A DNA stretch of 64,000 bases from Longimicrobiales bacterium (GCA_965202805.1 OZ241869.1:1728001-1792000); one strand, 5' to 3'; shown: positions 20,685 through 31,063, counted from the first letter of the stretch. The notes: generated from the sequence alone by a model not told the origin. Numbers and translations are program-made.

Positions 20685-21419
20685 CTAGCCCCGTCGTTTC
20701 CGCACGGGCAGCGACCGGGCGGATGGGGAGTCTCCGGCGGATCGGGATTGCGGCCCCCGGGCGGGCTGAAGCCCGGGACGCGCCGCCAATCGCGGGATGC
20801 GGTCCGGATCGACCCCGTCCGCCGCCCGGGCCAGCCGCTCGCGCACCGACCCGGGCACCCGGTGCAGATCGCCGTCTCGGAAGAAGGTGAGCGCCTTGAG
20901 CGTGGCGGACGGGTCGAATCGATCGCCGAACACGGCGGCGGCCGCGCCGAACGCGCGCCTCAGGCTCATGTCGTCCAGCCGGAGGAGGGCATCGACGTCG
21001 AAGTGGTCCGTCGCGCGCGAGCGGGTCTGGACGGACTGGAGCGCTGCGGCCGCCAGGTCCGTCAGGGAGGCGACCGCGATGCCGGGCGGCTCCGCCAGGT
21101 CCGGATCCTCCACATGGCTGCGGACGATGCCTCCGGAGAAGGAGACGCGCACGATTCCGCCACGATCCACGAGGCACGTGAGCGCGTCCCTGCCACGCCG
21201 GATGACCTCGGCGTCGCGCAGGTACGGGACGGTGTCGAGGAGCCGAAGGGGGTCAAACCGCTGCGCCGACAGGAAGCTGAATGCGTCCGGCCTGCGATGC
21301 GCCAGCCGGAGCGCGAGCGCGGCTCCGCCGTAGAGCACGAAACCATCCGGCGTTGTCCCAAGCTCCGCGAGTACGCGGTGCTGATGATGGGAGAGGGTGT
21401 CCAGCCGAAGTTGCAGCAG
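20685..21419 (-). CDS. AbiEii/AbiGii-type nucleotidyltransferase, degenerate
   Basis: FVLYGGAALALRLAHR, LKALTFFRDGDL; SD AAGGAGG precedes a CTG at 21419; catalytic acidic motif altered. Confidence 0.7.
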   Translation of the reverse strand: MLQLRLDTLSHHQHRVLAELGTTPDGFVLYGGAALALRLAHRRPDAFSFLSAQRFDPLRLLDTVPYLRDAEVIRRGRDALTCLVDRGGIVRVSFSGGIVRSHVEDPDLAEPPGIAVASLTDLAAAALQSVQTRSRATDHFDVDALLRLDDMSLRRAFGAAAAVFGDRFDPSATLKALTFFRDGDLHRVPGSVRERLARAADGVDPDRIPRLAARPGLQPARGPQSRSAGDSPSARSLPVRKRRG

Positions 21420-21534
21420 GAGATGCCTCCTTACCTTCCGATGCCAGGTTTCACTGCGGGGACCCGCCCGCTAGAGTGCCCGGACAAGATGGCGATGTGG
21501 CGTCGGTCGGGATCCGGCGCAACACCGGAGAGTA

Positions 21535-24154: not shown

Positions 24155-24898
24155 TCAGACCGCCTGCTCGCGCACGATGCGCCGCACCCCCTCCTCCAGC
24201 CGCGCCAGGTAATCGTCCAGATGCTCCGCCGCGATGGGGTTGCCGTGGATGGGCGCCACCCAGGACACCTCGCGCTCTTCGACCATCTCGCGCAGCACCC
24301 CCATGAGCACGGCCGGATCCGCGTAGCGAAGCCAGATCAGCGTGTCGCGGTGGAAGGTATGGATCTCTTCGCTCCGGAAGCCGTCCGGCAGCCGGCGCGA
24401 CGTCAGCCCGGTCTCGTCGTCCGCGTGGTGGTAACCGAAGCCGTCGGCGACGAAGAGCACGCGCGATGCCCGGTCGTAGATCCACGAGGTGTGGGAGCGG
24501 TCCGCGAGCGGCGGGTCGAGGAAGTCGAGCACCCTCCCGGCCACCTCCAGGCTCCCCCCGATCCGGCTGCGGCGGGCGTACGGAAGCCCCTGGATCTCCG
24601 GCTCGCCGGAGGAGGCCACGATCTCGAAATCGCCCCAGCGGCGCCGGAACGCCGGGATGTTGCCGGAGTGCGGATAGTCGGAGTGCGACAGCACCAGCGA
24701 ATGGATGCCCTCCCCGGCAGTGGCGCGCGAGATGCGGCGCACCAGGCTCTCGCGATGATAGAAAGAGCCCGAGTCGATGAGGATGTTCCTGTCCCGCGCG
24801 CGGATCAGAAACACGCTGACGTGGACGTTGCGCCCCCCGCCCAGCGAGTAGTTCTCCGCGATCCAGGACACGTCTCGCGTGAGCTCCACCCCGCTCAC
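24155..24898 (-). CDS. MBL-fold protein (FprA/ODP-like di-iron domain), paralog B
   Basis: ILIDSG, SHSDYPHSGN, LFVADGFG, APIHG; GTGA overlap with paralog A. Confidence 0.82.
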   Translation of the reverse strand: MSGVELTRDVSWIAENYSLGGGRNVHVSVFLIRARDRNILIDSGSFYHRESLVRRISRATAGEGIHSLVLSHSDYPHSGNIPAFRRRWGDFEIVASSGEPEIQGLPYARRSRIGGSLEVAGRVLDFLDPPLADRSHTSWIYDRASRVLFVADGFGYHHADDETGLTSRRLPDGFRSEEIHTFHRDTLIWLRYADPAVLMGVLREMVEEREVSWVAPIHGNPIAAEHLDDYLARLEEGVRRIVREQAV

Positions 24899-25698
24899 AG
24901 CACCCCCGTCCGCCCACCGGTCGCCACCCGCTCGACGACCTCCTTCATCATTTCGAAATAGCGCGGCACGTCGGCGCGAATCACGGGCCCGTGCGCGGAC
25001 GCGATCATCGCCGGACGATACCTCTCCGCCAGCAGATCGATCTCCGCCTGTGTGCGCGCCACATCCACGTACCGCATCCAGAACATGACCCGTCCGTGGA
25101 ACTCCGCGTAGCGGTCCACGTCCACGGGGGAGCGGAACTCATCCGCGAACAGAAGCCCTTCCCCATCCATCAGCGGCAGCCCCATCCAGTCGACGGGCAG
25201 GAGCATCCCCGAGGTTTCCTCCGTCATCCACATCGACATCGCCGCGTCCAGGAAGGCGGCGTCGTGGAAATGCAGCCGCAGCCCGCCCAGGTCGAGCGAG
25301 TCGCCCGGCCCTACCTTGTGGGCGTCTTCGAGATGATAGAGCTCGTGGGTGCGTCCGAAGCGGGGCGCCACCAGCGTCGCCCCGGGATGGCGCTCCAGGA
25401 TGCGGAAGGTGTTGCCCGCGTGGGGAACGTCCGGGTGCGAAAGCGCGAGATAGTCGAGGTCGCGGCCATCGAGCACCGTCTCCAGGTCCGCGAGGATCTG
25501 CTCGTCCGCGGCCGGCGACAGGGTGTCGAAGAGGAGCGTCCGCTCCCCGGCGAAGAGGAAGGCGTTCTGCGGAACGTGGATCTCTCGCCCGGGACGGTAC
25601 CAGTGGGCTCCGCGATCGACCAGGGACCTGGCGATTCCCGGCCGGTCCGGCCCGAACTCCTGAATCCAGTGGATCCCGGGATGGATTTCTCTGGGCAT
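24895..25698 (-). CDS. MBL-fold protein (FprA/ODP-like di-iron domain), paralog A
   Basis: MPREIHPGIHWI, QNAFLF, LLFDT, SHPDVPHAGN, ASAHG; start reassigned to ATG 25698. Confidence 0.82.
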   Translation of the reverse strand: MPREIHPGIHWIQEFGPDRPGIARSLVDRGAHWYRPGREIHVPQNAFLFAGERTLLFDTLSPAADEQILADLETVLDGRDLDYLALSHPDVPHAGNTFRILERHPGATLVAPRFGRTHELYHLEDAHKVGPGDSLDLGGLRLHFHDAAFLDAAMSMWMTEETSGMLLPVDWMGLPLMDGEGLLFADEFRSPVDVDRYAEFHGRVMFWMRYVDVARTQAEIDLLAERYRPAMIASAHGPVIRADVPRYFEMMKEVVERVATGGRTGVL

Positions 25699-25826
25699 GG
25701 CGCGCCTCGGGGGAGATGACGCCTCTCCGGCGAGAGGCACCCGCGAAGGTGTAATGCGGCGAGCACCAGCGCCAGTGGCGCGCCGGGGGATCGGCCGCGC
25801 GTTGGTCACCCTTCGGGGCAACCGCC

Positions 25827-27257
25827 TCAGTCCGCTCCCCGCACCCGGCCGAGCCCGACCCCGGCGCCCGCGGCCACCAGCACGAGCAGTGCGCCGAGAA
25901 CCGTGAGCGGAACACCCGCACGTCGAGCCACGTCGGCGCCCTCCTCGTCGGCGAGCTGGAACTTCGGCACGTCGGGAAGCGCGCTCGCGTCCATCTGCTC
26001 GCTGGCCAGGATCGCCGGCACGAAGAACTCCCGCCACTGTTCGGCGAACGCGCGCACCTGCGACTGGAAGGAGGCGAAACGCGCGTCTCCCGTCCCGGCC
26101 GCGTCGATGAGCACCTCCTGGGCCAGCAGCGCCGGCGACAGGAAGCGGTAGCGGCGCACCAGGGCGATCTGCTCGGCGCGGCGTGCATCGTGTTCCCCCG
26201 TCACCTCCTCCAGGTGGCGGTTCACGGCGTCCGTGGCGGCCCAGGCGAGCGCGCCCAGACCGGGCTCTTCGGCCACTACGCCGCCCGCCATTTCCGGATG
26301 GTCCTCCAGGTAGCGGGCGAGCAGTTCGCTGCGGCGGTTTACGGCGTCGTTCGAGGCCTCGCGCTGGGCGGTGACCATCTGCACGCGGGACGGCAGCGGG
26401 TGCAGCAGACCCGACGCGATGTTGATGGCGGCGGGGAGCACCACGACGAGCACCAGCCACGCGCCTACCAGGACCGTGGCGTTCCAGGCGGAGGACCGCC
26501 GCAGGCTGTTCACCCACGCCGCGAGCACGAACCAGAAGAGCGCGTAGGTGACCACCGTGCCGCACCACAGAAGCACCCGGCCGGGCGAGGCGAAGCCTCC
26601 CGTAACCAGAATGCCGGCCAGCGAGGCCGCCAGCACCATGCCCACGACCAGCAGCGCCCGGAAGGCCAGCTTCGCCGCCACGACGCTGCGCGCCGAGACG
26701 GGCTGCGAGAGCGTCAGGGCCAGCGTTCCCTGCTCGCGCTCCTCGGAGAGGACATTGAAGCTGAGCGCCAGAACCAGGAGCGGCAGCAGGTAGATCACCA
26801 CGAAGGCCAGGTCGAAGCGCCCGACCATCAGGTTGAGGGGGTTCTCCACCTCGCCGTTCTGGTGGAACGACGATTCGTTGGTGTAGATGTTGACGTCGTA
26901 GTAGTACGGCAGGAGATCGCTCTGACCGACCGCCAGAGCCGTCAGGGGACCCGGCTCCAGCACCGCGGTGTGGCTGCCGCGGGCCCCGCCCATCACGTTG
27001 GGCAGGCGCGGATCCGCAAAGCGCGACGCCGGCTCGGCGCCGTTTTCGATGTCGGCCAGCTCCTGTTCGATGGCGCGGACGCGCTCGACGTTGCCGGTCT
27101 GCACGGCCTCCACCGTGCGCTCCTGAAAGCGCATCCAGACGACGCCGTTGGCCAGCGCGTAGGCGAGCAGGACGGCGAAGAGCCCGAGCACGATGCGGAG
27201 CGCCGGATCGGCCATGAGCAGACGCCACTCGTTCCGGAGGACGGTGCGCGCGGCCAT
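25827..27257 (-). CDS. ABC-2 type permease, DUF3526 family
   Basis: LAVGQSDLLPYY, NPLNLMVGRFDLAFV, SEEREQGTL, FLSPA. Confidence 0.88.
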   Translation of the reverse strand: MAARTVLRNEWRLLMADPALRIVLGLFAVLLAYALANGVVWMRFQERTVEAVQTGNVERVRAIEQELADIENGAEPASRFADPRLPNVMGGARGSHTAVLEPGPLTALAVGQSDLLPYYYDVNIYTNESSFHQNGEVENPLNLMVGRFDLAFVVIYLLPLLVLALSFNVLSEEREQGTLALTLSQPVSARSVVAAKLAFRALLVVGMVLAASLAGILVTGGFASPGRVLLWCGTVVTYALFWFVLAAWVNSLRRSSAWNATVLVGAWLVLVVVLPAAINIASGLLHPLPSRVQMVTAQREASNDAVNRRSELLARYLEDHPEMAGGVVAEEPGLGALAWAATDAVNRHLEEVTGEHDARRAEQIALVRRYRFLSPALLAQEVLIDAAGTGDARFASFQSQVRAFAEQWREFFVPAILASEQMDASALPDVPKFQLADEEGADVARRAGVPLTVLGALLVLVAAGAGVGLGRVRGAD

Positions 27258-27258
27258 G

Positions 27259-28665
27259 CTACCCCACCTCCGCGCGTCGCACCCGCGCCGCGGCCGCCAG
27301 GATGGTCCCGACCAGCCATGTCCCCAGCACCAGGATCGACAGGACGCGGTTGCCCAGCACCCAGCCCAGTGACGGAGCGGCGTACTGAAGCGGCGGCGTC
27401 TCCTCCCAGAGTTCGGGGCCCGCCAGGTATACCTCGCCGGTGCGGGAGTTGTCGGCCAGATCGCCGTTCATCCGCCGCATCAGATCCCGGCGGTACCCCT
27501 CCGCCGCCGTTGCGAAGTGCCGGTGCTGTTCGACGTCCGTCCCGGCCAGTCCCATGGACAGGGTGCGCACCGCCAGCAGCGGCGCCAGCACCGCGAGCGT
27601 CTCGTGTACGGCGCCCTGGCGCTCGAAGGTGTCCCACAGCGCGCTGTAGTTGCGGTCGAAGATCCGGTTGCCGAACTCCTCGCTCTCCTGCAGGTAGACG
27701 CCCACCTCGTTGATCGGCAGATCCTCGACCCGCTCCACTCCGTGCTCCGCCAGCAGGCGCTCGGCCAGCGCGGCCCGGTCCGGGCGGGGAATGCCCTCGA
27801 CGCCGGAAGCCATCTCGCGTTCGACGTTGCGCGCGAACTCGATCGCCGACGGCGTCGGGTGCAGCCACTTCGACAGGTCCACCGCGACGCGCGGCGCCAC
27901 CAGCCCGTTGACCACCCACACGCCCAGCAGGATCACCAGCGCGGTGCGCGCCGAGCGGGCCCGGGCGGACACGGCCAGGGAGAGCGCCAGGAAGGCGGTG
28001 AAATAGGCCAGGTAGACACCGGCCAGGACCACACCCCGGGCCAGCGGGGATGCCGCCGGACCGGGACTCCCGACAACCAGGGCGGCCGCCCCCACCAGGG
28101 CCGCCGGCACCAGCAGCAGCGCCAGCGCCCCGGCGATGCCCAGCGCCTTGCCCAGAGCCAGCTCCCGCCGCCCGATTCCGGTGGCCAGCAGCTGGCGCAG
28201 CGTCCCTCGCTCCCGCTCCCCGGCGAGCGCGCCGAAGGTGAGCAGGATGATGAGCAGGGGCACGAGATGCTGCAGCACCTGCGCCGCCGTCAGGGCCCCG
28301 ATGCGCTGCGCCGCGGTCGCATCCTGGGCCGGGCGCAGAAGGAAGTCGTTCTGACGGTGGGCCTCGAGCCATACCGAGGTCCCGGTGTAGGGATCCACGC
28401 CCTCGTCCACAAAGGACAATGCCAGACGCGGCTTGAACGCGTAGATGCCGTAGTGGGCCGCCGAATGGGGATTCTTCTCGCCCTGCGACTCCCAGTGTTC
28501 GCGGGCGGTGGCCTGCGCGGCAGCGTGCTCCTGCTGCGCGCTTCGTGCCTGGACCCACCCGTGGCCCAGGGAGACCAGCAACAGCGCGCCGACCAGGATC
28601 GAGCACCAGCGAAAGCGCCCGTCCCGAACGACGTCGGTGAACTCCTTGCGTACTATGTGCTTCAT
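27259..28665 (-). CDS. ABC-2 type permease, DUF3526 family
   Basis: KNPHSAAHYG, LEAHRQN, GERERGTLR, LAGTD. Confidence 0.88.
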   Translation of the reverse strand: MKHIVRKEFTDVVRDGRFRWCSILVGALLLVSLGHGWVQARSAQQEHAAAQATAREHWESQGEKNPHSAAHYGIYAFKPRLALSFVDEGVDPYTGTSVWLEAHRQNDFLLRPAQDATAAQRIGALTAAQVLQHLVPLLIILLTFGALAGERERGTLRQLLATGIGRRELALGKALGIAGALALLLVPAALVGAAALVVGSPGPAASPLARGVVLAGVYLAYFTAFLALSLAVSARARSARTALVILLGVWVVNGLVAPRVAVDLSKWLHPTPSAIEFARNVEREMASGVEGIPRPDRAALAERLLAEHGVERVEDLPINEVGVYLQESEEFGNRIFDRNYSALWDTFERQGAVHETLAVLAPLLAVRTLSMGLAGTDVEQHRHFATAAEGYRRDLMRRMNGDLADNSRTGEVYLAGPELWEETPPLQYAAPSLGWVLGNRVLSILVLGTWLVGTILAAAARVRRAEVG

Positions 28666-28677
28666 CGTCGGTGTCTC

Positions 28678-29445
28678 CTAGTCGTGCATGTGCTTCAGAT
28701 AGATGCGCTCGAGATCCGCGTGGCCGATCTCCTCCGTGCTCATCTCCGTGACCAGGCGTCCGTAGCGCATGATGCCCACGCGCGTCCCGGTCTCCTTGGC
28801 GCGAAACAGATCGTGGGTCGCCATGAGCACCGCGACGCCGCGATCCTTGAGCCGTTCGATCAGCCCGGAAAACTCGTTGGAGGCCTGCGGGTCGAGCCCG
28901 GAGGTCGGCTCGTCGAGCAGCAGCGCGTCGGCCTTCTTGGCGATCGCGATGGCGATGCCGACCTTCTGGCGCATGCCCTTGGAGTAATCGGACACGCGCT
29001 GATGGACCGCGGCGCGCTCCAGTCCCGCCTCGACCAGGATGTCGGTGAGCCGCTCAGGGGTCAGGGAACCCCTTCCACCCAGGGCGGCGAAGTACTCCAG
29101 GTTCTCCAGGCCGCTCAGGTTGCGGTAGAGCATGACCTGCTCGGGGATGTACGCGATCCGCTGCTTCGTCTCGCGGTTGTGGGTGGACACGTCCAGACCG
29201 GCGATCAGCGCCTGGCCGGATGTGGGATCCACGAATCCGAGGAAGAGGTTGATGGTGGTGGTCTTGCCCGCCCCGTTGGGGCCCAGCAGGCAGTAGACGT
29301 CCCCGGGCGCTATGGCCAGGTCGAGGGAGTCGAGGGCTCGCGTGGCGCCATAGCTCTTGCTGAGCCCGCGGGCCTCCAGAAGGGGCGTGCGCCCATTCCC
29401 CAATTCGGCGGGGTGCCGAGACTCGGGCGTATGCATGTGTTCCAT
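28678..29445 (-). CDS. ABC transporter ATP-binding protein
   Basis: Walker A GPNGAGKTT, signature YSKGMRQK, LLLDEPTSGLD, H-loop; SD ggagag before ATG 29445. Confidence 0.93.
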   Translation of the reverse strand: MEHMHTPESRHPAELGNGRTPLLEARGLSKSYGATRALDSLDLAIAPGDVYCLLGPNGAGKTTTINLFLGFVDPTSGQALIAGLDVSTHNRETKQRIAYIPEQVMLYRNLSGLENLEYFAALGGRGSLTPERLTDILVEAGLERAAVHQRVSDYSKGMRQKVGIAIAIAKKADALLLDEPTSGLDPQASNEFSGLIERLKDRGVAVLMATHDLFRAKETGTRVGIMRYGRLVTEMSTEEIGHADLERIYLKHMHD

Positions 29446-29536
29446 CTCTCCGGTTGGGTGCGCCCACGCGGACGCAACCATCGACAGGGTTTCGCCGACG
29501 CGCGCGCCGGCCGAGGGGCTCTGCTACAGAGAGATG
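29443..29536 (-). promoter_or_regulatory. Predicted anti-SD/SD duplex (translational attenuator)
   Basis: mRNA CAUCUCUCUG (29536-29527) is complementary to CGGAGAGAUG (29452-29443): 9 Watson-Crick pairs + 1 G-U. Confidence 0.65.
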
Positions 29537-29841
29537 TGGCGAGGCGGGGCTCGGCTGCGTTGAGGGGCGAGATGGATGACCGCGGGAACGAACCGGCGCC
29601 CGGGAAGTGCGGGAATCCGCAGGAAAACCGGTCGCGCGACGCTCGGAGTGCCCGAGACGGTGGCCGATCCGGGACTATGGACGACCTGGCACACGGCACA
29701 GGCGTCCGGCGAGTCGGGTCCGTCTTCGTGTGTGTGTGAGCTCTCCGTCGAATAGACGAGGAGGAGGGAGAGGACGACGGCCATTGCGGTCGGCGCGCGC
29801 ACGCGCTCCCGCGATGCCGTCAGGTCGAACAGGTGCCCCAT
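29524..29841 (-). CDS. DUF2946-like leader peptide with HxH, CxxC and C-terminal RAPP motif (CutF/CruR-like)
   Basis: Hydrophobic segment MAVVLSLLLVY, HTHED, CAVC, ...RSRAPPRHISL*; start may be the internal MAVV. Confidence 0.8.
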   Translation of the reverse strand: MGHLFDLTASRERVRAPTAMAVVLSLLLVYSTESSHTHEDGPDSPDACAVCQVVHSPGSATVSGTPSVARPVFLRIPALPGRRFVPAVIHLAPQRSRAPPRHISL

Positions 29842-29943
29842 CGCTCTCGATAGAACTGGTGCGCCATCGCTCCTTCCTCCACCTCACGGACTTCCCACCG
29901 GCCCACTCGCCGCCCCTGGACGATCGGGGATGCAGCGAACGCT

Positions 29944-29972
29944 ACCGTAGCGCGCCGGTGCGGAGAGGTCAA
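29944..29972 (-). promoter_or_regulatory. Putative sigma70 promoter for the leader/ABC operon
   Basis: Minus strand TTGACC-N17-TACGGT. Confidence 0.55.
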
Positions 29973-30080: not shown

Positions 30081-30629
30081 ATGAACGCTGCCGCCGCCAT
30101 CCTGCTCGCCGCTTCGGTTCTGCACGCCCACGGCGCGCCCCAGGAGCCCCTTTCCAGGGGTCCCTCGCACGACGGCTACACCGAGGCCGTCACCATGCGG
30201 CACGCGCACGAAGGGCCCCATGGCGAAGACCTCGTCCGCATCGAGCGGATGATCCGCTGCACCTGCGGCTGCACGCTTGACGCCCACACCTGCCAGTACC
30301 AGATGCAGTGCAGCGAGTCCCCCGTCTTCACCCGGCGCATTCTGGCGGCGCTCGAGGCGGGCGAGTCCGAGGAAGTGATTCTCGCCGGCTTCGTCGGCGA
30401 CTACGGCCAGAGCATCCTCGGCGCGCCTCCCAGGGAAGGCTTCAACTGGGTCGGCTACGTGATGCCCTGGGTCGCGTTGGCCTTCTCCGGCCTCATTGTC
30501 AGCTTCTTCCTGCGCAGGAACGTCGCCCGCGGGCGGGAGCGCGCGCCGGTCGTGGACTCGGACATCTCCGACACGGACTGGGATCGGCTCCGGAAGGAGA
30601 TGAAGGCGCTGGAGAAGGAAGACTGGTGA
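30081..30629 (+). CDS. ccmH: CcmH/CcmL-like cytochrome c biogenesis protein
   Basis: IRCTCGC...C, FVGDYGQSILGAPPREGFNWVGYVMP, C-terminal TM. Confidence 0.75.
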   Translation: MNAAAAILLAASVLHAHGAPQEPLSRGPSHDGYTEAVTMRHAHEGPHGEDLVRIERMIRCTCGCTLDAHTCQYQMQCSESPVFTRRILAALEAGESEEVILAGFVGDYGQSILGAPPREGFNWVGYVMPWVALAFSGLIVSFFLRRNVARGRERAPVVDSDISDTDWDRLRKEMKALEKEDW

Positions 30630-31063
30630 TGGCCGAACCCCAGCACTACGACAACCACGCCAAGCGTCCTCCCCGGCTGTTTCTCGTGGCGTGGTTCGCC
30701 GCGACGGCCGCGGCCGCGAGCTTCCTGATCCGACTGTTCATCGACTTCAGCGTCGAGACCCTGGCATTGTTCCTGACCGCGGGCGGGGCCTCGGTGGGAA
30801 TCATGTTGGCGCGCCGGTTCGCCCTGGGCGTCCAGGACCGGGTGATCCGCCTCGAGGAGCGCCTTCGCATGGAGAGACTCCTTCCGGACGATCTGAAGGG
30901 CCACATCGAGCAGTTGACGACGGATCAGGTGATCGGGCTGCGCTTCGCATCCGACGCGGAGCTGCCCGGGCTGGTGCGCCGGGTTCTCGCCGGCGAGCTG
31001 GCCGACCGGAAGACGATCAAGCAGGCCGTAGAGGACTGGCGGGCCGACCACCAGCGGGTCTGA
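30629..31063 (+). CDS. DUF6526 family membrane protein
   Basis: QHYDNH...RRFALGVQDRVIRLEERLR...IGLRFASDAEL...WRADHQRV; TGATG overlap. Confidence 0.75.
   Translation: MAEPQHYDNHAKRPPRLFLVAWFAATAAAASFLIRLFIDFSVETLALFLTAGGASVGIMLARRFALGVQDRVIRLEERLRMERLLPDDLKGHIEQLTTDQVIGLRFASDAELPGLVRRVLAGELADRKTIKQAVEDWRADHQRV

Follow-up and report, generated by a model that had tools for sequence, protein, structure and literature searches.

A predicted metal-responsive arrest-peptide leader upstream of a DUF3526 ABC transporter operon in a Longimicrobiales bacterium

We analyzed a stretch of 64,000 nucleotides from a Longimicrobiales bacterium (GCA_965202805.1 OZ241869.1:1728001-1792000), hereafter called the window, in which a small open reading frame (ORF) precedes genes for an ATP-binding cassette (ABC) ATPase and two DUF3526 permeases. 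The small ORF, treated here as encoding a leader peptide, is the first gene of the operon and lies on the same strand as the ATPase gene. The features on which the argument rests are listed below, with positions counted from the first letter of the window.

29944-29972, minus strand: sigma70-like promoter, TTGACC-N17-TACGGT, seen in the sequence, boxes kept in relatives (TTGACC at 29972-29967, 17 nt, TACGGT at 29949-29944)
29524-29841, minus strand: leader ORF of 105 amino acids, a DUF2946-like predicted arrest peptide (sequence and homologues)
29752-29787, minus strand: hydrophobic segment, leader residues 19-30, following a basic stretch (sequence)
29677-29736, minus strand: predicted metal site, H36-x-H38 ... 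C48-x-x-C51 ... H55 (alignments)
29542-29553, minus strand: RAPP arrest motif, residues 97-100, five residues before the stop and 45 residues after C51
29527-29536, minus strand: strand in the leader's last codons opposing the ribosome-binding site (RBS), forming a 10-bp helix with 29452-29443 (computed folds)
29437-29523, minus strand: intergenic region of 87 nt, with two inner hairpins showing compensatory changes and then a purine-rich RBS (29452-29440)
28678-29436, minus strand: ABC ATPase, PF00005, starting at the second ATG (domain search and invariant alignment columns)
27259-28665, minus strand: permease 1, PF12679 and PF12040 (DUF3526), with a NosY-like membrane fold and a periplasmic His motif
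25827-27257, minus strand: permease 2, PF12679 and PF12040 (DUF3526) (domain search)

A sequence-only reading of this locus had proposed that the leader senses a metal, stalls the ribosome and gates the transporter. Its description of the parts was largely accurate. The hydrophobic segment, the HTH tripeptide (residues 36-38), the CAVC (residues 48-51) and the terminal RAPP were all found where it had placed them, and domain searches matched PF00005, PF12679 and PF12040 in the ATPase and the two permeases, all of which are full length in the window. The promoter that it described is present and both boxes are conserved among aligned relatives, though a consensus promoter scanner, too strict for a -10 box reading TACGGT, lists 0 sites. 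The gap between leader and ATPase, given as 78 bp, is in fact 87 nt, the conserved ATPase start being the second ATG, at 29436. The copA gene said to lie about 2 kb away (TIGR01511, above the cut-off) ends 1.86 kb from the leader start.

The combination of CxxC and R[AGS]PP is common by chance, occurring in 31 of 33,575 stop-to-stop frames of this 68% GC genome, and the case for the leader therefore rests on conservation. A profile built from relatives' leaders matched only the window's ORF when run against the genome (E 1e-24; next match 0.31). H36, H38, C48, C51, R97, P99 and P100 are invariant in 25-26 homologues that had not been selected by motif and share 50-78% identity. H36, C48, C51, R97, P99 and P100 are likewise invariant in 43 of 43 aligned leaders; since these were picked by their CxxC/RxPP motif, only the invariance of H36 is a free result in that set. 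The ratio of nonsynonymous to synonymous substitution rates against 13 relatives was 0.28-0.77, below 1 in every comparison. Moreover, the C51-R97 spacing of 45 residues is identical to the CxxC-to-RAPP spacing of CruR (Bp2923), the DUF2946 (PF11162) leader of Bordetella pertussis, in which this distance is conserved and required (PMC9426467). The hydrophobic segment is probably a Sec signal, with cleavage likely just before the HxH motif. A structure model of the leader gave a helix at residues 7-34 with low confidence (predicted template-modelling score, pTM, 0.28).

With respect to family, the resemblance to DUF2946 stood and formal membership did not. The leader resembles PF11162 (E 0.0058, covering profile positions 49-117 only), but its 17.8 bits miss the gathering cut-off of 23.7 bits. 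Matches to PF11162 at E <= 0.1 were obtained for the leaders of 36 of the 43 relatives (best 1.1e-5), in a further set of 19 proteins none passes the cut-off, and NCBIfam holds no family for the leader. By sequence comparison, it is a diverged relative of DUF2946 and no formal member, having missed the cut-off.

The survey of DUF3526 operons that the sequence-only reading had suggested found such leaders to be conserved. Within the phylum, Gemmatimonadota, 64 of 401 genomes encode PF12040, and we inspected the regions around the stronger matches, leaving aside weak-scoring genomes and those without listed coordinates. A CxxC...R[AGS]PP leader stands directly before the ATPase in 39 of the 47 phylum loci in which both the ATPase and its upstream DNA are present; the other eight comprise one RDPP leader and 7 loci without a leader. 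The spacing in the 39 motif leaders was 45 residues in 37, 44 in one and 47 in one, where the search had allowed 30-60. Three of the five operons that contain a TonB-dependent receptor carry a second leader copy before it, as expected of a cis element. We then considered the best 80 of 602 loci from an all-species genome scan (70-97% identity), which fall in Gemmatimonadota, Acidobacteriota and Latescibacterota assemblies, which suggests lateral spread. The leader precedes the ATPase in 65 of the 77 testable loci among these; the other 12 include 2 with one altered motif, 2 with a looser homologue and 8 in which the ATPase lies inside a longer operon, 5 of these having a leader at the operon head. 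The 47-locus and 77-locus sets overlap, and kin within them are not independent. Two-permease operons are common in the relatives, and 11 loci have three or four distinct leaders, every one with a downstream gene of its own.

Several leader variants were seen alongside. Leaders with one altered motif (RDPP in L057/L184, loss of one CxxC cysteine in L131, LGPP in L169) are candidates for natural switch-dead forms, or else sequence errors. Acidobacteriota islands (L140, L144, L147, L168, L174, L176, L195; also L170-L172, L196) hold 3-4 CxxC-R[AG]PP leaders each, which precede a ZnuD-like receptor, a gluconolactonase-like propeller protein, a B12-like receptor or CobN-like gene, and the DUF3526 ATPase. 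In the Longimicrobiales loci L051, L054 and L136 a further leader lies downstream of the operon on the opposite strand, before a MerC-like gene in L136. A very His-rich ORF ending in LAPP (L062:8938-9420), which points away from the ATPase and precedes a TonB receptor, is possibly another leader variant. On a Hymenobacter plasmid, a His/Cys-RGPP ORF precedes a receptor-ATPase-DUF3526 operon (weak profile score, E 0.34).

We next turn to the RNA. The leader codons at 29536-29527 are complementary to the purine-rich site at 29452-29443 before the ATPase. This outer helix is present in both the minimum free energy and the centroid fold, encloses the two hairpins in a 36-sequence consensus and is paired in 98.6% of cells. 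For the whole structure, over 35 distinct rows, 97% of cells are paired and 47 two-sided changes were counted, compared with 18.9 in shuffles and no more than 11 in slid controls; the covariation signal comes mostly from the inner hairpins. By computation, opening the RBS costs 10.5 kcal/mol, but 5.6 kcal/mol once the first 22 nt are blocked, and blocking lowers the cost by at least 3 kcal/mol in 37 of 44 relatives; when the segment after RAPP was shuffled 200 times, a cost of 10.5 kcal/mol was reached in 7 cases. Because the leader end pairs with the ATPase RBS, a stall at RAPP, itself expected from CruR, would according to these computations switch ATPase translation on. Leaders of a second family, in which HxxC replaces CxxC, stand before porin-ZnuA-ZnuB operons in genomes without the DUF3526 operon (L214:9638-9973, L215:6737-7078, L216:6784-7119, L217, L218 and L221). 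These leaders, of a different sequence family in the same phylum, have a spacing of 44-45 in 7 of 7; in 6 of 7, visual inspection shows a comparable fold over the RBS. They are independent support for this layout. As a universal rule the pairing was rejected, being unseen in Acidobacteriota or Latescibacterota leaders, which may by analogy act through Rho like CruR. The leader is nearly uncovered in the single RNA run, for which there are assembled contigs only and which has no bearing on expression.

The permeases were examined by modeling and alignment. In the model of permease 1 (pTM 0.79), the membrane domain is NosY-like and carries two insertions on the periplasmic side. Its His motif consists of H67, H71, E101 and H103, of which the three histidines are invariant in 25 aligned phylum homologues and E101 nearly so; for H71 and H103 the invariance extends to 11 of 11 sequences once Bacteroidota and Alphaproteobacteria are added. 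The motif is plausibly a metal or metallophore site; it lies in a poorly predicted part of the model (predicted local distance difference test score below 50 at residues 71-124), which gives no site geometry. The DUF3526 complex may import metal or may only strip it in the periplasm.

The genes found behind related leaders point to zinc. One family of leader-gated receptors has ZnuD as its best NCBIfam match (190 bits, below the cut-off), ZigA is matched above the cut-off in a gene divergent from one operon, and other leader-gated genes are CobN-like and MerC-like; by similarity, these together look like a recurring zinc-starvation set. In Pseudomonas, the receptor-cobN operon PA1922-PA1923 is Zur-regulated (PMC4542158). 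A TonB receptor lies near 6 of 8 plasmid DUF3526 operons, one of them, on a Bacteroidota plasmid, being surrounded by a receptor, MerC, a COG0523 GTPase and folE. Neither ZnuA nor ZIP was found in the window's genome, which is closed and 98% complete. In a tally of 79 genomes including the window's, hand-picked from earlier lists and with kin that are not independent, ZnuA was present in 1 of 41 genomes with a leader-gated operon versus 11 of 26 with no operon found; it was present in 1 of 4 whose upstream DNA is missing and in 0 of 1 with a single weak match. The two near-complete genus members without the DUF3526 operon carry a leader-gated ZnuA operon instead. Caulobacter, the only one of 14 control genomes with PF12040, is without ZnuA.

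Copper, to which the sequence-only reading had pointed by way of copA, fared less well. Among fetched regions, copA occurs only within the window's genus (10 relatives), is found in none of those from 30 leader-bearing genomes outside it and in 6 of 80 loci of the all-species set, and in one genus member an inversion separates the operon from it. We therefore rejected its proximity, a matter of genus-level synteny only, as evidence for copper. No PCuAC, CopC, SCO or OprC-type target was found among 47 non-ATPase ORFs clustered behind leaders, the annotation covering one representative of each main cluster. What remains of the earlier proposal is a DUF3526 system linked to metal under a CruR/CutF-like leader, favored by the conserved leaders, the RBS layout and the metal-gene context, but not its copper. 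Taken by itself, the metal read by the leader is probably zinc; some other metal or a mixture is unlikely, and copper a little more so.

Regulatory sites were scanned in parallel. By eye, no Caulobacter-type Zur box was seen in the aligned promoter, and the three Fur-family proteins of the genome score best as Fur, PerR and PerR, all below the cut-off. A scan of metagenome contigs for Zur sites gave 35 loci, none with a DUF3526 permease; it did not reach Caulobacter znuGHI and was uninformative. Leaderless Gemmatimonadota operons (L062, L065, L066, L078, L081) have Fur-box-like palindromes just before the ATPase, as judged by eye, and those of L078 and L081 adjoin COG0523 genes. The palindrome TGCAAC-N3-GTTGCA precedes leaderless Bacteroidota DUF3526 operons as well as MerC/COG0523 (L204:754, L205:1163/1202/2929, L206:4025/4086); it is possibly a Bacteroidota Zur-type box, for which no confirming paper was found, and we leave the palindromes unassigned.

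On balance we judge it just probable that the leader is a cis-acting ribosome-arrest peptide like CruR and CutF that sets translation of the ATPase and permeases by metal supply, most likely of zinc. Arrest by CruR has been shown in vitro, with the two proline codons in the ribosomal P and A sites (PMC12992588), and the ribosome would stall in the same manner on RAPP here. According to the computed folds, the stalled ribosome would cover the first half of the 10-bp helix and free the ATPase RBS, so that the stall means on. If the chain is engaged in SecY, 45 residues would span the exit tunnel and the membrane, leaving the HxH/CxxC/H cluster just outside. Since an uptake system is expected to be active under metal scarcity and the stall is predicted to be the on state, metal should release the arrest: its binding would fold or pull the chain, the ribosome would terminate, the helix would re-form and the operon would be off. 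In vitro, zinc-dependent folding does release the arrest of an engineered SecM fusion, at a shorter tether (PMC4571824). From its context, the operon would be an uptake-side system like znuGHI of Caulobacter, working with a TonB-dependent receptor. A wider scheme, which we put forward tentatively and regard as doubtful, is that sponge-symbiont Gemmatimonadota, Acidobacteriota and Latescibacterota run a Zur-free zinc-starvation response through nascent-peptide sensors at the SecY exit, with one leader per uptake unit (up to 4 per island), interchangeable between DUF3526 and ZnuAB; DUF3526 would then be a binding-protein-free zinc or zincophore importer, or a NosFY-like metal stripper, that replaces ZnuABC, and the window's leader would be the first natural zinc-released arrest peptide.

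Besides the missed DUF2946 cut-off and the hand-picked make-up of the ZnuA tally, a number of results weigh against this proposal. The outer helix hardly varies, showing a single two-sided change, and its conservation could in part reflect coding and RBS constraints; the total folding energy of the region is no better than that of shuffles (z -0.08); and the Acidobacteriota and Latescibacterota leaders, which have longer gaps, show no consistent anti-RBS helix. ZnuA is present in 5 of 7 genomes with a leaderless operon and 15 of the 26 genomes without the operon also lack it. The receptor inside window-type operons scores as siderophore-class, and the receptor present in some relatives' operons lacks an orthologue in the window's genome. 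The solved folds nearest to the membrane part of permease 1 are those of NosDFY, a copper-delivery ABC system (7o0y, 7znq; TM-score 0.64-0.66 over the target, E 3e-5 to 3e-4). That ZnuH and ZnuI of Caulobacter are DUF3526 proteins is an inferred identity, drawn from the presence of PF12040 at the level of the genome. The arrest-release effect of ADR1a peaks at 24-26 residues, not 45 (PMC4571824). Finally, CutF couples the same kind of hairpin to the opposite polarity, copper inducing a stall that makes a detoxifying oxidase (PMC9973294), where the reverse is probable here.

The window's copy also bears marks of its own, as follows.

29821-29872, minus strand: diverged 26-bp tandem duplication of the leader start (sequence and relatives)
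29867-29820, minus strand: out-of-frame mini-ORF of 15 codons, from the ancestral ATG at 29867
25781-25787, minus strand: junction of a deletion of about 2.85 kb (permeases 3 and 4), at a short repeat (relatives)

Because of the duplication, the ancestral start at 29867, with its strong GGAGG site, is now out of frame. The mini-ORF runs 21 nt into the leader before it stops, and the leader itself has to begin at the second copy (29841). The duplication is unique to the window among the fetched loci and is found gap-free in contigs of 3 runs from 3 studies, one of which shares its study with the likely source; one duplication-bearing strain has 25 other differences. The deletion junction is crossed gap-free in 2 runs and retains the first codons of permease 3. 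In the genus, all 9 relatives with fetched DNA extending far enough have permeases 3 and 4, and in one genus relative (L039:7864-9187) permease 3 is apparently frameshifted, another sign that the pair is dispensable. The switch may be damped in this species by the start-site duplication, with motifs and helix intact. The labelled runs that contain this stretch are sponge or marine metagenomes (runs covering only a small share of it were set aside), and the host is probably a sponge symbiont.

Four other explanations have to be weighed against a zinc-responsive leader, two of which keep the switch and change its metal. Some other divalent metal or complex, whether Co, Ni, Mn, Fe, a corrinoid, haem or siderophore cargo, or several of these, is suggested by leader-gated receptors that include siderophore-class and B12-like members, by the gated CobN-like chelatase, by the Fur-box-like palindromes before leaderless operons and by the alternative binding protein, which scores best as AztC and second as MntC, both below cut-off. 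Against it stand the recurrence of ZigA, ZnuD-like, MerC-like and CobN-like genes as one zinc-starvation set and the zinc-specific repression of znuGHI in Caulobacter, and we regard it as unlikely. Copper, acting either as in CruR (copper turning the operon off) or as in CutF (a copper-induced stall turning export or delivery on), seems to us slightly less likely still. Both tested DUF2946 leaders respond to it, copA is 1.9 kb away and syntenic in the genus, the permease fold is nearest to NosY, and CxxC is a Cu(I) motif; the confinement of copA to the genus and the zinc-type neighbors, in place of copper-type targets, argue the other way. For metals other than these two, His-rich CutF-like clusters have been proposed to bind Ni or Co (PMC9973294).

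The other two explanations concern whether the window's leader is a metal switch at all. The family may be as described and the window's copy largely silent, through out-of-frame loading, a rarely translated leader, a closed RBS and a decaying operon, an account that overlaps with the zinc-responsive leader and that we consider improbable. It draws on the duplication, which strands GGAGG on the 15-codon mini-ORF, on the loss of permeases 3 and 4 and on the missing receptor orthologue, but motif residues, spacing and helix are all intact and the ATPase and permeases are full length. In addition, an in-frame ATG, preceded by a weaker purine-rich site, is available in the second duplication copy, the stop of the mini-ORF 21 nt inside the leader would allow re-initiation, the duplication is common to strains from 3 studies, and operons with two permeases are no rarity among relatives. 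Very improbable, in our view, is a leader that does no metal sensing and serves as a secretion monitor or constitutive coupling device like SecM and ApdA, or works mainly by Rho-dependent termination. RAPP leaders with signal peptides do monitor Sec/YidC elsewhere, the genome has a rho gene, and the 3' part of the leader is C-rich (31 C and 11 G in 60 nt). However, an invariant Cys/His cluster at a fixed distance and targets that are metal-uptake genes, not sec genes, count against it, as does a short gap with a conserved RBS-covering helix, on top of which Rho could still act.

Some further observations concern the surroundings. Overlapping the -10 box is a 6-1-6 palindrome (29940-29952) that has no second copy in the genome and is conserved within the genus but not beyond it. 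Divergent from the leader lie a CcmH-like gene and a DUF6526 gene (30081-31063, plus strand), syntenic within the genus. Two tandem ODP-type metallo-beta-lactamase-fold genes (24155-25719, minus strand) follow permease 2, the first having a 5' region with short CATCTC/GAGAG-type complementarity; they were rejected as part of the system, adjoining the operon only within the genus. An AbiEii-type nucleotidyltransferase lies at 20685-21338 (minus strand), with a probable small partner gene upstream (about 21340-21530). Beside the full rho, the genome has a second, shorter rho-like gene (G000:C1:282933-284039; 474 bits, below cut-off).

It is already in print that leaders of this kind are widespread and may respond to other metals (PMC9973294), and likewise that upstream RAPP ORFs precede many metal genes, with at least 9 source-table rows naming as neighbor a 'zinc-regulated TonB-dependent receptor' (PMC12992588). 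What is new here is the target family, a DUF3526 operon, and probably the metal. DUF3526 was not mentioned in the literature searched, and searches on zinc-sensing RAPP leaders and on later work on znuGHI found no paper that tests such a leader, with subscription papers largely not covered; a DUF3526 or ABC-2 neighbor may yet appear in the supplementary neighbor tables for CruR and CutF, which lay outside the search. Both tested members of the leader class sense copper. If this leader senses zinc, ribosome arrest would be a general metal-sensing device able to replace a metalloregulator, and the choice of metal could be mapped on a 105-residue peptide in a cell-free system, for which an uncultured host is no obstacle. 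The analysis also gives DUF3526 a first functional handle, as a predicted uptake-side, metal-limited system with a conserved periplasmic His motif.

Among known systems, CruR is the closest in plan. As in CruR, the leader is the first gene of its operon, has an export-like N-terminus, places CxxC 45 residues before a C-terminal RAPP and precedes uptake-type genes, with a predicted polarity in which metal relieves arrest. Unlike CruR, it falls below the Pfam cut-off, carries an additional HxH and H around CxxC and precedes an ABC-2/DUF3526 operon; where CruR has a 162-nt gap and Rho termination, an 87-nt gap with an RBS-covering helix is found, and in place of copper the context points to zinc. 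CutF of Rhodobacter capsulatus is likewise a small exported leader with a Pro-rich C-terminus, and a stem-loop shielding the Shine-Dalgarno sequence of its next gene is melted by the stall (PMC9973294; bioRxiv 10.1101/2025.02.05.636593). The window's leader shares the CutF-like traits of fewer than 150 amino acids, PP in the last 15 residues and a same-strand next gene within 1,000 nt, and its stem-loop over the next RBS is a computed one; CutF differs in having CxxxC and PPP and in being sensitive to elongation factor P.

The operon itself is laid out like znuGHI (CC1518-CC1520), found with ZnuK in Caulobacter crescentus; znuGHI is repressed by Zur and rises 12- to 38-fold in the mutant (PMC4176598). 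Both consist of an ABC-2 ATPase and two ABC-2 permeases with no binding protein. ZnuGHI has a TonB-dependent receptor beside it, which the window's operon lacks although some relatives' operons contain one, and is under transcriptional Zur control where a leader is predicted here. The membrane part of permease 1 is nearest in fold to NosDFY, at an identity of 16-17%. NosFY is an energy transducer for copper hand-over; the DUF3526 permeases, in contrast, form heterodimers to judge from the gene layout, carry the His motif in large periplasmic insertions and are accompanied by no NosD-like gene in the operon. ApdA/ApdP and SecM (PMC10951233, PMC10987492) have in common with the leader a RAPP-type motif, a signal-like N-terminus and a predicted opening of the RBS upon stalling, whereas they precede sec or yidC genes and have no Cys/His site, and the gene downstream here encodes an ABC ATPase. 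The proposed scheme would join the polarity of CruR, in which metal relieves arrest, with the output of CutF, a hairpin over the RBS.

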